64,000 nt of DNA from Centroscyllium fabricii (taxonomy: Eukaryota): contig JBNRSN020000004.1 in assembly GCA_051313645.2 (NCBI GenBank), forward strand, positions 258,912,001-258,976,000, given 5' to 3'. Below the pieces are notes generated by a model. The model searched no databases. It worked only from the letters and a program-made list of their open reading frames with translations, and had not been told where the DNA came from. The position numbers were made by a program, and so were the translations under genes. This document shows, piece after piece, positions 48-64,000 of this stretch (positions are counted from its first letter, which is position 1; every line of letters starts with the position of its first letter).

Positions 48-1322
48 TTACTTCTCATGCTCATGATTCCACTCCCATTGTATATTCTTTTCAGTTAGTC
101 TTCTCAGTGGCGACAGCTTTTCAGAGAGTTTGGATATGAATTTACCCATGTAGTTGACCATTCCATTAAACCTCTGCACATCCCTTTTGCATTGTGGCCT
201 TGGCATATTCTCAATGGCGGACACCTTTCTGGGATCTGGTCTGATGCCCTCACTGCTAAGGATATCTCCCACAAATGTCAGTTCTGTCACCCCGAGCTGG
301 AATTTCTCTCTATTCAGCTTCAGGTTTGTTTTCCTTGTTGCTTTCAGCACTTCTTTCAGTCTCTCGTCATGCTCAGTTCTCATGATTCCCCATACTATGA
401 TTTCATACCTTGAGGTATCAACTCCCTCCAGGTGCTCGTAGACCATATAGATAGTTTTGTGATACACTTCAGCAGCTGAGGCAATGCCAAATGGTAACCT
501 TAGGAATCTGTATCTGCCAAGTAGACCATTGAACGTGCACAGTCTTGAACTTGCTTCATCCAGTTTCAACTGCCAAAATCCTGATGATGCATCTTGCTTG
601 CTGAAATACTTTGCATTTGCAAACTGTGACATGATTTCCTCATGCGTCGGAAGCTCTCTCTTTATAGCTCTGTTTATATCTCTTGGATCCAGGCAAATTC
701 TGAGCTTTGCTTTCTTTTTGTCCACAACGACGATGGAACTCACCCACTCAGTTGGCTCATCTATCTTTTGAATCACGTTCAGGCTTTCTATCCTGTCCAA
801 CTCTGCCTTCAGTTGCTTCTGCCTAGCAAACAGAACTTTTCTGCATGGATGTATGATCGGTGGCACACTTTTATCTACTCTGATCATTTGTTCTCCTGGA
901 AGGCAGCCTAGACCCTGAAATAGGTTGTTGTACTCTTTCATGAGTTCATCATAGACTGTCTCTCCTTCGCTTTCCACAATGAGGACTCTCTTTACCAGGT
1001 TCAGTATCTCACAGGCTATTAAACCTAGGATGGCCTGCACATCCTTTGGCACCATGATGAATGCTAGCATGTATTCTCTGTCCTTGTGTGTCACTTTGAC
1101 AATGCATTTTCCTTGCACTGGTATATCGGTACCTGAGTATCCTGTCACTTTCACTTTTGTTCCATATATCTTTGGTTTGGGTCTAATTTTCTTTAAATCA
1201 GCCTCTGAAATCACATTAATTTGTGCTCCAGTATCAAATTGAAATGAAATGTGTATGTCATTCACTTTTAATCTCAACATGCAGTCTATGTTTTCTTTCT
1301 TGTTTTCAGACACAACATCCAC
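48..1322 (-). pseudogene. Gypsy A pol fragment (aspartic protease + reverse transcriptase), catalytic YxDD degenerated
   Basis: 424-aa ORF with DTGA, LRICLDP, DASSGFWQL and LPFG. The expected xxDD reads SRYEI, and there is a premature stop. Confidence 0.85.
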
Positions 1323-1462
1323 ATAGAACTCCTCTATCTCCCTTTCATCTACTGCATGGACCTTGCTTTGTTGCGCTTGGTACTTACTGCAACGGGCATA
1401 ATGGTTGTTTTTGTAGCAAATATTGCATGTTTTATCATATGCTGGACACTCTTTTGGTAGGT

Positions 1463-1988
1463 TTTTATAAGGGTTATACTATTTATTTTTTTGGTTACTT
1501 AATATTTATTTTCTTTAGTTTCTTTTCCTTTTTTTTGTGATGTTGGTGTTATATCGGTAATTAAATTGTAGTAATTATCTATATTGGCATATGATTGTTA
1601 TATATTTATTGTAACAATTATCTGTTAATATATTATATTGGCATATAATAATAATGTAATGCTGTATATGGATAATATAATGACAATGTAATATATTAAA
1701 ATAATAATATAGTATGTAATAATATAGAATATAAATTACTATATATTTGTGAGATGATGTAAGGAAGCTTGTAATTTTATTGATCTATGGAGAAGGGGTG
1801 GGAGTTAATAAGTTATACTTCTTCTCACTCCTTTTCAGATATGTAAATGTATTTTGTTCATTTTGATTGAAAAAATAGCTTGTTTTTTTTAAATATGTTT
1901 TTCTTTGTATCTTGTTTTCTTTTTTTTTAAACATATTTGAAATAAACATTATAGAATAATAATAATAATATAATAATAATAATAATAA
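1463..1988 (+). mobile_element. 5'-truncated non-LTR retrotransposon 3' UTR with (AAT)n tail, inserted in Gypsy A gag
   Basis: AT-rich block flanked by TAGGT direct repeats (1458-1462, 1989-1993). It ends in AATAAA-like signals and (AAT)n, and contains the hairpin GGGGTGGGAG...CTCACTCC. It splits the gag zinc knuckle. Confidence 0.65.
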
Positions 1989-3122: not shown

Positions 3123-5813
3123 GAAGGGGAGTCAGGTCTGACTGCAGTTTTAATCAAACATGCAGAACTCTTAAATGGTGAACTTGGGAGCATGAAAAAG
3201 ATAAGCGTGTGACTGTACATTAAACCTGACAGCAAACTGAAGTTTCACAAAGCCCCCTGTACCCTATGCAATTAGGCCAAAAGTTGAGGCTAACTTGGAG
3301 GCCTTAGTCGGGAAGGGAGTCCTGGAGCCTCTGAGCATGAGCAAATGGGCTACACCCATTGTTCCTGTCCTAAAAAAGGATGGATCTATTCGAATCTGCG
3401 GGGATTTTAAATTTACTATTAACCTGGTGCTGTTGGCAGAACAGTACCCTCTTCCCCTCATTGGTGATCTATTTACAGGCCTGGCTGGAGGGCAAATGTT
3501 CAGCAAAATCGACTTATGCCAGGCTTATCTACAAATGCATGTAGATGACAAATCAAAGGAGCTGCTGACAATTGTGACACACAAGGGGCTATACAGGTAC
3601 CGCTGCCTTCCATTTGGAATTACATCGGCCCCTGCTGTATTCCAAAGGGCAATGGATCAAATTTTGAGTGGACTGCCAGGAGTCCAGTGCTACCTGGATG
3701 ACATCCTTGTCACTGGAACGAATGAGGAGGATCATCTTCTGAATTTGAATCCGACACTACAGTGACTGAAAGAGTACGGACTCAGAATTCGTAAGGACAA
3801 ATGTGAATTCTTTCAGTCTTCTGTTGAATACCTGGGGCATGTGATTGACGCTACCGGCCTGCACAAGGGCCGTCAAAGGTCAAGGCGATCGTGCAGGCCC
3901 CAGCATCCCAGAATGTGAGCCAGTTACATTCATTCCTGGGGCTATTTAACTATTATGGAAAGTTTATTCCAAACTTAGCAACATTGCTGAAGCCATTACA
4001 CCAGTTGCTATGTCAAGGCAAAACATGGAAATGAACTGCGCTGTGCAATGAAACTTTCGCCCAAGCAAAGAAAGCATTGCTGAAGTCAGAAGTCCTGACA
4101 CACTTTGACCCAAAGCTACCCTTGCAACTAGCATGTGATGCATCACCATATGGGGTGGGAGCAGTCATATCCCACATCATGCCTTCTGGTGAAGAGCAAC
4201 CTATCGCCTTCGCATCACGCACCTTGAACAAGGCTGAGAGTAACTATGCACAGATTGAGTGCAAGGCATTGGGAATCGTTTTTGGAATTCGAAAATTACA
4301 TCAGTACTTGTTTGGGAGAAGGTTCACACTCCTAATGGAACATCGTCCCTTGACATCAATCTTTGGGCCCCACACCGGAATTCCGTCTCTTGCTGCAAGC
4401 AGGATGCAAAGATGGGCTTTGCTATTGTCGGGATACACATACGACATCAAATGTCGTAAATCAGAATTGCACGGCAATGCAGATGGTCTCTCGAGGCTGC
4501 CCTCGCCTATTACTCACCCAGAGCCTCATCAGATAGACATCTTCTACTTCAGACAAGTTGAAGGAGCACCTGTCACTGCAGCCCAGGTGTGAAGGCACAC
4601 CCACAACAATCCAGTTCTGTCTGAGGTAATGGACGATGTCATTCGAGGGAGAGCTATAGGAGATTCTCCTCAGTTGAAACCTTAGGTTTCAAAAAGAAAT
4701 GAGCTCTCTGTCCAGGCAGGTTGTCTTCTCTGAGGACACCGTGTCATCATTCTGCCACCTCTGAAGGAAACTGTACTGCAACAACTTCATGCAGGTCACA
4801 GTGGAATGGTTCGGATGAAGGAAATGGTCAGAAGCTACTTCTGGTAGCCAGGTCTCGATGGAAACTTTGAGGAGAAAGCCAAAAGATGTTCTCCATGTCA
4901 AAGGGTCTGGAATGTACCACAGCTGGGACACCTATACCCCTGGGATTGGCCTGAAGAAGTGTGGCAGTGCGTACATGTGGACTTCCCCGGTCCTTTCGAA
5001 GAGAAGATGTTTATGGTGGTTGTGGATGCTTGGAGCAAGTGGCCGGAGGTCGCTGTGATGAGGTCTACCACAGCAGAGAAAACAATTGAGAAACTCGGTG
5101 AGATGTTCAGCCGTTATGGCTCACCAGAGCAACTCGAAAGTGACAAGGGTCCACAATTTGTGTCACAGGAGTTTGCAATTTTCCTGCAAGTGAATGGTGT
5201 CCAACACATCAGGTCTGCACCCTACCATCCCTCTATTAACAGCCTGGCAGAAAGGTTCATGCAAACCTTGAAGCACGGCTTGAAGGCATCGCAAGGTCAG
5301 GGCTCAATCCACCAACGCCTGAACAGATTCCTGTTGTCCAGCAGGAACGAGCCGCATGCCAGTACCAAAACTTCCCCCGCTTCACTCATGATGAAGAGGC
5401 ATTTGCGGACTAGTTTTGACATACTCAAACCTCCAAGGACAGAGCAGGTTGTCCAACGTCAAGAAGAAGCTCAAGTTGAAAGAAGGGAGATAAGAACCAA
5501 GGAGAGACAGTTTCATCCTGGAGAGCAAGTCCTAGCTCGAAACTACAACACTGGACAGAAATGGGTTCCTGCTACGGTGATCATGCAGATGGGCCCTGTG
5601 TCGTACATGATTGAGACTGCTGAGGACATCATCTGGAGAAGACACACTGATCAACTGTTGCTAGGAGCAGAGACAGCCAACGAGGCTCCAAAGGCTGATC
5701 AAACTGAACTGTTTCCGGATGACACCACAAACAAGTATCCTTCTGCACAGTGCTCTTCTCCAACACAGGAAGTTAAAGAGACTGTTCCACCTGTACAAAC
5801 TCCTGACTTTTGA
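3123..5813 (+). pseudogene. Gypsy B pol (RT-RNase H-integrase) broken by stops and frameshifts
   Basis: Three ORF fragments in canonical Gypsy order with recognisable catalytic motifs. Confidence 0.85.
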
Positions 5814-22556: not shown

Positions 22557-22617
22557 ACAAATGTAAGAAGTCACACAACACCGTCCAGCCCAGTCCAACA
22601 CCGGCATCTCCACATCA
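22557..22617. mobile_element. Internally collapsed Penelope-like pseudo-LTR copy
   Basis: Contains the arm start AATGTAAGAAGTCACACAACACC joined to the reverse complement of the extension at 22654-22686. It is flanked by the near-duplicate CAGCATTACA / CAGCACTACA. Confidence 0.65.
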
Positions 22618-22740
22618 CAGCACTACAAAGACCGAGGCCCTTCCCTATCCTTAATGTGGAGGTGCCGGTGTTGGACTGGGGTGGACAAATGCAAGAAGTC
22701 ACACAACACCAGATTATAGTCCAACGGTTTTATTTTAAAT

Positions 22741-22775
22741 CACAAGCTTTCGGAGCGCTGCTCCTTCCTCAGGTG
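22741..22775 (-). ncRNA. Minimal type I hammerhead ribozyme motif (minus strand)
   Basis: Reverse complement of the 22798-22832 motif. Confidence 0.65.
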
Positions 22776-22797
22776 GACAGACAGACTTCTGTCTGTC

Positions 22798-22832
22798 CAC
22801 CTGAGGAAGGAGCAGCGCTCCGAAAGCTTGTG
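22798..22832 (+). ncRNA. Minimal type I hammerhead ribozyme motif
   Basis: CAC-CUGAGGA-A-GGAGC AGC GCUCC-GAAA-GC-UU-GUG: CUGANGA and GAAA boxes, 5-bp stem II and a palindromic AGCU stem III, as in Penelope-associated hammerheads. Confidence 0.68.
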
Positions 22833-22959
22833 ATTTAAAATAAAACCGTTGGACTATAATCTGGTGTTGTGTGACTTCTTGCACTTCCCTATCCTGTGTG
22901 TAAGTGCGCTGAGGGTATGGCTGGCCTCTCCCATGTGTGAAAATAGACACGTTGCATGG

Positions 22960-59898: not shown

Positions 59899-60229
59899 TG
59901 TTGTAATACTGTCATGAGCCTATAATATTGCTGATTGGTCTATGGACCAATCAGATCTCCAGAAAAACAGGCAAGACTGCCAGGTTGGATTTTGTGTCTA
60001 ATTCAAATTATTCACTAAATCACATTTGTGGTAATATTGAACAGACGTCCGGGGGAAGGCTAAGGGGTGAACTCTGTACATGTCACTTCCTGTTTTCTAT
60101 TAGTATAAATACTGGAACTGCTCAGTATGGGGGAACGCTTCACCTGGAAGCATGGTAAAACCCGTCTTTGTACATAGTGATAATGTAGTGGATTAAGTTA
60201 TTGATGTATCAGACTCCATTATTACATCA
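59899..60229 (+). repeat. 5' LTR of Gypsy D
   Basis: Inverted termini. The last 11 nt (TTATTACATCA) are identical to the end of the element C LTR. Confidence 0.75.
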
Positions 60230-60836
60230 ATTTAATCCACTAAAAACTTCACTCTCAAAATCCTTAAAACTTTTGGACAGCTTGAGGATCCAGGGACCAA
60301 CCCATCATGGAAAGCCTCCTCAAACCGACTCACCTGGATCTGGACCCAAATGCACCAGCAGCTGCCAAGGTATGAAAGCATTGGTTCCATACTTTTGAGA
60401 ATTTTCTTGAAGAATGTTGTGAGGATGTCTCTACCAAACTATGATTACTTGTGAATTATGTGTCCGCAAACGTATATGAATATGTTGATAAATGGGATAA
60501 CTAATGAGGTAATCCAAGCACTGAAATAACTATATACAAAGGCCCCAAATGAGGTCTATGCGAGACATTTACTGTCCACGGCCCAACAAAGGCCAGGGCA
60601 ATCGATTCAGGAGTTCCTTCAAGAACTTCGCAGTCTCAGTGTAGATTGTAATTTTAAGGCAGCCTCGGCTGAGGTGTACCACGAAGAAATGATTCGAGAT
60701 GCGTTCATCTGCGGGATCACCTCTCCATTTATAGGCCAGCGTCTGCTAGAGAGAAAAACGCTTAAGCTAGCAAAGGTTTTTGACCTGGCTTGTGCTCTGG
60801 ACATGGCAAAAAATAATTCAGACCTCTATCAGCTGC

Positions 60837-62504
60837 CCAGAACTCTTTTATTTTAAACCAATTAGAAAAACACCATTATTTACAACATTCACAAAAGAAA
60901 CAAAACCCCCCACATTACCGCGCTTGAGCCGTGGCAAACACCCAAGCCCCAATGCCCACAAGGTAGGGGTCAAAGTTTCAAGCCCTCCTGCCTATGAGGC
61001 AGGGGTCAAAGTCTCACGTCCTTATGTCCACAAGGCAGGGGTAAAAGTCACAAGCCCTCATGCCCACAAGGCAGGGGTCACGACCACAAGTCCTCATGGC
61101 CGCAGGCAGGGTCCAAACTCGCCAAGCTTCCTGGTCATCGTCGCCCACCCATCCGGACAGCGGGTCTCCGGGAAAACACACAGACGAGGGTCGGCACTCC
61201 CAGCGAACGGCTGGTGCAGATCCGGCAGTCTCCCGTTGACATTCCACTCCATCCACAGGGCCCTCCACATCGCCGAGCAGATCCTCCCACTCTCCTGGAC
61301 AAACGGACTGAAAGGAAGCTCAAAAACACTTAATTAACGTTATCAAATTAAACCAAGATCACCCCGGCCGGGGTGACGATGCACTCCAGTCCAGAACTCT
61401 TTTATTTAAAACCAATTACAAAACACCATTACTTACAATATTTACAAAAGAAAATAAACCCCCCACATTACCGGGCTTGAGCCGCGGCAAACTCCCAAGC
61501 CCCAATGCCCACAAGGTAGGGATCAAAGTTTCAAGCCCTCCTGCCTACGAGGCAGGGGTCAAAGTCTCAAGTCCTTCTGCCCACAAGGCAGGGGTAAAAG
61601 TCACAAGCCCTCATGCCCACAAGGCAGGGGTCACGACCACAAGTCCTCATGGCCGCAGGCAGGGGTCCAAACTTGCCAAGCTTCCTGGTCTTCGTCGCCC
61701 GCCCATCCGGACAGCGGGTTTCCGGGAAAACACACAGACGAGGGTCGGCGCTCCCAGCGAACGGCTGGTGCAGATCCGGCAGTCTCCGGTTGTCAATCCA
61801 CTCCATCCGCCGGGCCCTCCGCATCGCCGAGCGGATCCTCCCACTCTCCTGGACAAGCGGACTGAAAGGAAACTCAAAAACACTTGATTAACGTTATCAA
61901 ATTAAACCAAGATCACCCCGGCCGGGGTGACGATGCACTCCAGTCCAGAACTCTTTTATTTAAAACCCAATAGAAAAACACCATTATTTACAATATTTAC
62001 AAAACAAAATAAAACCCCACATTACCGCGCTTGAGCCGCGGCAAACTCCCAAGCCCCAATGTCCATAAGGTAGGGGTCAAAGTTTCAAGCCCTCCTGCCT
62101 ATGAGGCAGGGGGTCAAAGTCACAAGTCCATATGCCCGCAAGGCAGGGGTAAAAGTCACAAGCCCTCATGCCCACAAGGCAGGGGTCACGACCACAAGTC
62201 CTCATGGCCGCAGGCAGGGTCCAAATTTTCCAAGCTTTCTGGTCTTCGTCGCCCGCCCATCCGGACAGCGGGTCTCCGGGAAAACACACAGACGAGGGTC
62301 GGCGCTCTCAGCGAACGGCTGGTGCAGATCCGGCAGTCTCCGGTTGTCGATCCACTCCATCCGCCGGGCCCTCCGCATCGCCGAGCGGATCCTCCCACTC
62401 TCCTGGACAAGCGGCCTGCAAAGAAAACTCAGAAACACTTGATTAACGTTATCAAATTAAACCAAGATCACCCCGACCGGGGTGACGATGCACTCCAGTC
62501 CAGA
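60837..62504 (-). repeat. Three tandem ~554-bp units (probable Tx1/L1-clade LINE 3' end) inserted in Gypsy D gag
   Basis: CCAGA at 60837, 61391, 61945 and 62500 separates three similar units. Each has 33-bp subrepeats and an 18-bp palindrome. The minus strand reads (G)LECIVTPAGVILV* followed by a UTR ending in AATAAAAGAGT. Confidence 0.85.
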
Positions 62505-64000
62505 TCTCAAACTGCTGTTGCAACTGCAATCAGACCATTCAAGGGGCCTCAGGTGGACCCTATCATGGAAGAATCTAGTCCTGATGAGTTCAGTGATGAG
62601 GAGGAGGATGACCCCACTTTAGCAGCCTCTTGGCAATCTAGGAAGAAATGCTTCTTTTGTGGAGACTCTTTCCAACCTAGGAAATTCTGCCCTGCTCGCA
62701 ATGCAATCTGCAGTCATTGCAGTATAAAAGGACACTTTGCAAAAGTTTGCCAATCAAGAGCCTCTACGAGGGCCTATCAAGCTAAGGCCTACCGAGCTGC
62801 CCCAATTAGGGCCTATCAAGATGCTCCAGCTATGACCTATCGAGCTCCCTCCCGAAGAAAGACACCTAGAATTACAGCCTCCCTCTGTGCAACCACACCG
62901 ATTACAGCTGCCTGCCCTCAAAATTTATTTCATGCAGGTACAAAAGTCTCGATTAATGGGCATACCTTTGATGCCTTTATTGACTCAGGAAGTACTGATA
63001 GCTTCATTAGAAAACAGATTGTTGAGAAATTGAAACTACATGTCTTCCCATCGGACCAGGCAATTGCAATGGCTCAGTCATCACTTAATACCAGAATCTC
63101 CGGCTTTTGTATTATTGACATGACACTTAATGGCCGCATGTATCCCTCCACTCAGCAATCAGTGCTCAAGGACTTATGTTGTGATCTTATCCTAGGGCTG
63201 GATTTTCAAAAACAGCATAAAAAACTCATCATTGAGTTCAGCGGATCCAAACCTGGACTTACTATTTCTAATATACCATCTAAATCACCATTTTGTGCAC
63301 TGTCAGCAGCCTCACTTGATGAACCCTCATTATTCGCCAGTATTCCTCCTCAATGCAAACCAATAATAACCAAATCTCGACGCTTCTGTCAGGAAGATCA
63401 GTCTTTCATTGAGACAGAAATCTCTCGTCTTTTAGCAGAGGACATCATCGAACCATGTTTATCGCCCTGGCGGGCTATGCATTGATTGCTCTCAAACCAT
63501 CAATCAATATACTGACCTGGACACCTGCCCATTGACATGCATTGATGACATGGTTAATAAACTGGCTGAATACAAAGTGTTCTCAACCTATGATTTAAAG
63601 AGTGCCTATCATCAGGTATCCCTACGGGTCTCAGATAAGAAGTACACGGCATTTGAGGCTAATGGACGGCTGTATCAATTTTGTTGCCTTCCTTTCGAGG
63701 TCACTAATGGAGTGGCTGTTTTCCAACGGGCAATGGATGGCCTCGTTGAGCAGGAAAACCTAAGCGATACTTTTCCCTACCTTAATAACATTACTGTTGC
63801 AGGCCACGACCAGCAGGAACATGATGCCAACCTCCAAAGATTTAGGGATGCTCTCCATCACCGTAACTTAACTTTAAATGAATCCAAATCTGTGGAGTCG
63901 CAACCGACCATCAACATTCTTGGCTACTGCGTAGGCAATGGTATCATTAAACCAGACCTGGAAAGACTTCACCCGCTCCAGGAGCTCCCTCCACCTAACA

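Follow-up and report, generated by a model that had tools for sequence, protein, structure and literature searches.

A predicted self-primer ending in the poly(A) hexamer in an animal Gypsy clade outside the chromoviruses

Two LTR retrotransposons of Centroscyllium fabricii, elements C and D, which lie in the 64,000-nt stretch of DNA analysed here (the window), belong to a Gypsy clade outside the chromoviruses and probably prime reverse transcription with a piece of their own LTR. As in Tf1, the primer would be part of the element's own transcript, here an LTR segment that ends in the poly(A) hexamer and is freed by a predicted RNase H cut just after it. LTR elements must prime adjoining the 5' LTR, and since the priming site in this clade varies in sequence between families, yet in every case matches the repeat of its own element, that repeat is most likely the primer. 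To our knowledge, self-priming is proven in yeast Tf1 only and predicted for a few other lineages. What is likely new is a variant of this known mode, in a widespread non-chromovirus clade of animal Gypsy elements and with primer and poly(A) signal merged in the layout.

Results

Element D and the end of its 5' LTR

Element D has TG...CA LTRs, a 5-bp TSD, a polypurine tract and the order gag-PR-RT-RH-IN of a Ty3/Gypsy LTR retrotransposon, and the closest solved-structure match is the Ty3 RT. The family is abundant: a 19-nt word of its LTR occurs 8486 times, without mismatch, in the 7.2-Gb genome. The following features were assigned to element D.

60022 to 60026, forward strand: TSD, 5 bp, ACATT; second copy past the 3' LTR at L031:7198-7202
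60027 to 60229, forward strand: 5' LTR, 203 bp, from alignment with the 3' LTR (L031:6981-7197); family norm 216-217 bp
60104 to 60110, forward strand: TATA-like box about 82 nt upstream of the arm, common to element C; putative promoter
60186 to 60196, forward strand: 5' arm, the predicted self-primer; 11 nt remain, intact LTRs having 12 nt that end in ATTAAA
60193 to 60197, forward strand: site of a 13-nt deletion; side hairpin and predicted cut site are gone from the window copy
60200 to 60229, forward strand: inner U5 stem-loop, retained in D/E-type families only
60230, forward strand: spacer, 1 nt after the CA of the LTR; A in 36 of 37 families
60231 to 60242, forward strand: primer-binding site, exact complement of the arm, without TGG
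60307 to 64000, forward strand: broken gag-PR-RT with stops and frameshifts; RNase H and integrase lie past the window end

The initial annotation had placed the LTR end at 60229. This position is now set by the 3' LTR outside the window and by ACATT on both sides of the element. At 21 further or same-family loci, the TSD at the same LTR end was exact in 11, agreed at 4 of 5 positions in 5 and was unjudgeable in 5. In the catalytic motif of RT (window 63778-63792), YLDN or YxDN replaces YxDD in most clade members, and a minority have YLDD. The gag of element D contains a 554-bp unit three times in tandem (60847-62516) that is partly unlike the gag of its family. The window also holds, at 25543-26691 on the reverse strand, what we take, from its motif, to be an exon of an Iroquois-type homeobox gene.

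The hairpin in the window is a deletion allele

The pairings first described for element D are present in its sequence as written, and it is true that no TGG follows its 5' LTR. The region 60170-60260 folds at -26.5 kcal/mol (z -6.15), which was equalled by none of 200 shuffles. The stem of about 20 bp with a 3-nt bulge exists in the window copy but is the product of a 13-nt deletion and not a family trait, and the ATTAAG seen in its paired LTR segment reads ATTAAA in intact copies. The 13 nt are missing at the arm end of the 5' LTR and present in the 3' LTR of the same element. Among 30 unselected family LTRs, 25 retain them, five have other deletions at this place and none has the exact deletion of the window. 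In intact copies the leader folds as a junction made of a 12-bp outer helix that starts from 60231 and ends in ATTAAA, a small side hairpin, which stands where the window copy has its bulge, and the inner U5 stem. This inner stem (60200-60208 with 60223-60231) is found in element D but has been lost from element C, and no more than 13 of 36 families are predicted to form it. The feature is real and the general idea behind it right; the structure given for it is that of a deletion allele.

Exact counts across the genome gave 383 deleted and 3726 intact LTRs. The deletion is commoner in 5' LTRs (171 deleted and 720 intact in LTRs preceding a primer site, 212 and 3006 in the remaining LTRs; odds ratio 3.4). 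In eight elements with a 5'-LTR deletion and a readable 3' junction, the 3' LTR was intact in six and had a different deletion in two; the deletion was common to both LTRs in none. Because it is absent from the 3' partners, the change that gave the 3-nt bulge and ATTAAG either followed insertion or affected a single strand. A role for the deletion as a 5'-LTR-specific part of the mechanism was rejected, as it is also found in 3' and solo LTRs and never in both LTRs of an element. The side hairpin of family D LTRs is a deletion hotspot with several distinct alleles.

A perfect helix in a fixed register across the clade

We surveyed the clade using own-genome families found by a gag-motif search (30 loci taken of 4540 matches) and relatives found by gag alignment in metagenome contigs (80 loci, of which 70 were scanned and 10, whose match began well inside gag, omitted). 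At least 95 nt of upstream sequence was available for 68 of the 70 metagenome loci, which together with 31 own-genome loci gave 99 scanned elements. A blind search near any CA identified a perfect helix of at least 9 bp in 80 of them, starting exactly 1 nt past the CA in 74 of the 80. In a shuffle control, 6 of 297 sequences reached 9 bp and none exceeded it. LTR pairs and TSDs verified the CA as the LTR end in long invertebrate loci. The 80 positive elements fell into 42 groups, of which eight were dropped (mutated copies of represented families, or another offset); with families D and E2 added, the set comprised 36 families, later 37 with L216. Counts over these families are not counts of independent events, the families being of common ancestry.

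The conserved feature is a perfect helix, mostly of 12-18 bp, between the bases that start 1 nt after the CA of the LTR and a segment within the LTR. The 36 de-duplicated families have 29 different 11-mers at the site, and swapping arms and sites between families gave perfect 12-nt pairing in only 12 of 1260 combinations. Helix positions 1-9 are Watson-Crick by construction of the search and positions 10-14 are free; the latter are paired in 34, 36, 34, 28 and 26 of the 36 families, with swap rates of 0.72, 0.54, 0.28, 0.42 and 0.51. None of the 23 unpaired cells at positions 10-14 is a G-U, as would be expected if the site is copied and not only selected, while G-U accounts for 45 of 231 cells further out and, in the side hairpin, for 17 of its 103 pairs. 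We rejected the idea that helix length compensates for low GC (rho -0.02). Relatives by gag are found in cnidarian, crustacean, insect, nematode and hagfish records; a search of viral contigs found none, and a search of the ESM Atlas gave gag clusters without a name, so that no clade name was gained. Three of the metagenome contigs (L102, L113 and L155) read as collapsed circles or as whole elements in tandem.

The complement might also have arisen incidentally, when DNA synthesis switched templates at a quasi-palindrome, and have no role as RNA. The locus is indeed a rearrangement hotspot, with the 13-nt deletion enriched 3.4-fold in 5' LTRs, a 16-nt deletion and loop inversions. However, the rearranged alleles are not common to both LTRs of an element, no alternative primer site is present, and the register and flanking motifs are the same in families whose gag-PR is only 32-54% identical to that of D. 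The clade-wide register largely refutes a template-switching origin, which we regard as highly improbable.

No tRNA-type site in the relatives examined

Related families with an ordinary tRNA primer-binding site, named in the initial annotation as the contrary case, were not found among the relatives examined, and a TGG-type site occurred in none of the 42 groups. Those examined among the 19 helix-negative loci were mutated copies of positive families, 5'-truncated or cut by a contig end, and had no tRNA site at the LTR end. One locus considered as a tRNA-primed basal relative (L109) was rejected, since the arm is visible in its 3' LTR. The best match to a tRNA half was 7 nt, against Cys and Lys tRNAs only, and the free variation of the site letters argues against a constant tRNA-half site. 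As a prediction from sequence, the tRNA-independent priming proposed from C and D is well supported, and far beyond this pair, by the proportion of elements with the helix and the absence of tRNA-type sites.

The arm ends in the poly(A) hexamer

In 30 of 37 families the arm closes with the canonical poly(A) hexamer as its final 6 nt; the hexamer is shifted by 1 base in two families and absent in five. These five families keep the fixed register, and four of them have no hexamer within 150 nt. Directly after the arm, a purine-C-C opens the small side hairpin in 26 of 36 families; the energy of this hairpin is -2.6 kcal/mol, compared to -0.67 kcal/mol in shuffles (p 2e-5).

The helix might serve to hide the poly(A) signal of the 5' LTR, with the primer being something else, such as a tRNA fragment. 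The place of the hexamer at the arm end in most families favors this possibility, as does the pairing partner, which is found only downstream of the 5' LTR. There is also a precedent in HIV-1, where the polyA hairpin holds the hexamer in a helix near the RNA 5' end and masks the 5' LTR signal. In HIV-1, however, both strands of the helix lie inside the repeat and a tRNA primes, whereas in the C/D clade the partner is the primer site and exists at the 5' end only. The partner sits at the position of a primer site at a fixed offset, the 29 different 11-mers leave an outside primer no constant site to bind, and G-U pairs are absent from the main helix. Because five of 37 families pair in register without an arm-end hexamer, masking is not the whole story, and we consider a helix for masking with an outside primer quite unlikely. 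With the arm as primer, poly(A) masking is plausible as a second role that follows from the layout.

An AG precedes the arm end by exactly 11 nt in 25 of 37 families, and keeps this place in four more families in which the hexamer is shifted by 1 base. As the AG does not move with the hexamer, the distance is counted from the arm end. This fixed AG suggests an 11-nt primer. On the other hand, the distant TATA box (75-94 nt upstream of the arm in 5 of 7 own-genome families) and the helices longer than 11 bp suggest an internal primer. A TATA-like word 25-35 nt before the arm was found in none of the 37 families. By contrast, five sushi-like loci of the same genome (L205, L208, L209, L214 and L218), from the set that bears the Tf2-type SH3 domain, have a self-complement of 9-11 nt, and in all five a TATA-like word precedes it by 30-32 nt; the primer in the C/D clade may therefore not be the start of the RNA, as it is in Tf1. 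A search for a downstream promoter element relative to the AG gave no peak, and a canonical initiator at the AG was rejected (CA at -1/+1 in only 6 of 37 families).

Matched changes between elements C and D

Element C lies on the reverse strand, with the following features.

49923 to 50186, reverse strand: 5' LTR of element C
49970 to 49983, reverse strand: arm of element C, ending in AATAAA
49908 to 49921, reverse strand: primer-binding site of element C, a 14-nt complement of its own arm, 1 nt past the LTR
45638 to 45902, reverse strand: 3' LTR of element C

Consistent with the covariation first reported, the outer helices of C and D differ at three of 12 positions, each change being matched on the opposite strand. 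The two-strand changes had been taken as a sign of selection; the paired changes are real, but matched changes can also arise by copying in a self-primed element. This is possible because the primer site would, as predicted, be recopied from the primer in each cycle. Within family D, none of 17 changes in 61 copies was two-sided and none of eight variant primer sites was mirrored in the arm, so recopying has no within-family support. The one-sided changes in the family are as expected for the decay of dead copies.

Integrated palindromes use the same register

To find products of the pairing, we searched the genome for primer sites that run on into a complement of the sequence lying upstream of the arm, and examined all 57 matches. 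An unrelated 16-nt deletion allele read on the other strand accounted for 46 of them. In three (L327, L328 and L344), LTR bases 1-172 run up to the arm end, where they meet the complete LTR and spacer in reverse complement. These palindromes, 390 bp long in L327 and L328, have two U3 ends and perfect direct 5-bp TSDs (CCTCC, CTCAC and TAGAC). A chromosomal template switch would invert the flank and not repeat it, and the palindromes therefore look like integrase insertions of palindromic cDNA. They require a strand end that paired the arm to the primer site in the same register, and they support use of the pairing in reverse transcription. The palindromes are symmetric and cannot tell an RNA primer from plus-strand DNA folded onto the arm; two successive DNA rearrangements may also have produced them.

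It is also conceivable that the arm of the 3' LTR primes: the RNA would circularise and be cleaved behind the hexamer close to its 3' end, which would then prime at the site. The palindromes can be read in this way, as U3-R-arm joined to a minus-strand copy. Two loci, L344 and L340, have 40-45 nt of the polypurine-tract region ahead of the arm, indicating that a 3'-LTR arm was involved there. Furthermore, the minus-strand copy in L326, which has no TSD, reaches precisely to the predicted cut, at the base following the hexamer; this is one of five truncated products, of which the other four end elsewhere (chance end point about 0.1). On the other hand, the 5' arm, at only 46 nt from the site, would be expected to pair before a distant one, the products are rare (three of 57 matches in a family of thousands), and fold-back of plus-strand DNA onto the 3' arm accounts for them too. 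We judge priming by the 3' arm to be rather improbable. Also unlikely, in our view, is that animal Gypsy elements invented self-priming a second time and independently, with a primer that is not the start of the RNA but the poly(A)-signal segment supplied by the RNA 3' end, the genome being circularised and cut after the hexamer. Priming by the 5' arm is the reading that we prefer.

Variation is unusually high at the first base beyond the helix (243 variant copies compared to 1682, from two search patterns that differ slightly). Among single-change forms at this base, C exceeds T by 29 to 6 (p 1e-4, from a hand count among 100 matches listed, which kinship may inflate), and it is C that would pair with the next base upstream. 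Ty1 is known to make errors where a template ends. Primer-like copies of 16-17 nt (L296/L350 and L332) were rejected as a gauge of primer length, since a brief fold-back gives the same. Elsewhere in the window, 22583-22886 contains nested near-perfect inverted repeats with arms of 33 and 99 nt; L340 carries an insert of related sequence at its fold-back junction.

A branch separate from the Tf1/sushi chromoviruses

An intact 891-aa pol gave no Chromo or SH3_Tf2-1 hit. We built an unrooted RT tree of 35 rows, with 24 near-duplicate or short rows omitted and with long-branch warnings, in which six chromovirus-like rows bearing SH3_Tf2-1 group together (100/99), apart from a branch of 27 clade rows (95/93). 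Two other Gypsy elements of the window (48-1478, reverse strand, and 3241-5813, forward strand), whose RT we take to be Mag-like, served as outgroups. Pairing of the loop with bases after the site, which would form a third duplex, showed no excess in 31 families (4.45 compared to 4.17 nt).

Discussion

We propose that the leader folds during synthesis, with the arm pairing to the primer site and the small hairpin stacking directly after the arm. The cut in the RNA would then fall between the final A of the hexamer and the purine that follows, like the Tf1 cut after its primer. Minus-strand DNA would begin at the spacer base, extend about 46 nt to the cut, and jump to the part of the 3' repeat that lies between cut site and poly(A) site. 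Plus-strand synthesis would recopy the primer, and the primer site would thereby follow changes in the arm. The same helix may also conceal the poly(A) signal; this would apply to the 5' LTR alone, since the 3' LTR lacks a downstream partner.

In Tf1, the RNA's initial 11 bases pair with the primer site and RNase H cleavage falls between bases 11 and 12, as described in the sections of PMC7175516 on priming. Self-priming is listed for Tf1/sushi, Tcn1 and TAR copia elements in the relevant passages of seven papers taken together (PMC6317226, PMC3601003, PMC4600332, PMC6934838, PMC10085805, PMC5341516, PMC7175516). Like the C/D clade, Tf1/Tf2 of Schizosaccharomyces pombe, Tj1 and the Tf1/sushi chromoviruses have a site complementary to their own LTR and no tRNA site, and Tf1/sushi elements have the 11-nt spacing and extra helices beside the primer duplex, according to the parts of PMC10085805, PMC4600332 and PMC7175516 that deal with these leaders. 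In contrast to Tf1/sushi elements, the C/D clade has no chromodomain or Tf2-type SH3 domain and forms a separate RT branch. Its arm ends in the hexamer 23-71 nt before the LTR end, whereas the sushi-type self-complement lies 124-218 nt before it. The helix is mostly 12-18 bp, compared to 11 in the Tf1 group, and there is neither a TATA 30 nt upstream of the arm nor the third 'pretzel' duplex of Tf1.

For the TAR lineage of plant Ty1/copia (Houba, Osr-1) and the Tcn1 clade, self-priming is predicted from complementarity between LTR and site alone; these are copia elements or chromoviruses, in plants, and overlap with a poly(A) signal is unmentioned in the passages of PMC6317226 on them. The Cigr-1 clade of Ty3/Gypsy is compact and metazoan, with members in a tunicate, molluscs and annelids (sections of PMC6238403 and PMC8556966 on this clade), and resembles the C/D clade by description only, as a compact metazoan Gypsy clade; the main texts of PMC6238403 and PMC8556966, in the parts concerning Cigr-1, leave primer sites unmentioned. 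Our literature search gave no report of self-priming in a non-chromovirus animal Gypsy clade or of a primer overlapping a poly(A) signal, and a prior mention is possible.

Self-primed elements would not need a host tRNA, and tRNA fragments could not be used to control them. Where annotation tools make a tRNA site a requirement, such elements will be overlooked or misjudged. The integrated palindromes offer a route to priming intermediates from the genome alone, and the sushi-type elements of the same genome provide a built-in comparison. If self-priming from the 3' end were true, a single 12-bp switch would decide between polyadenylation and replication.
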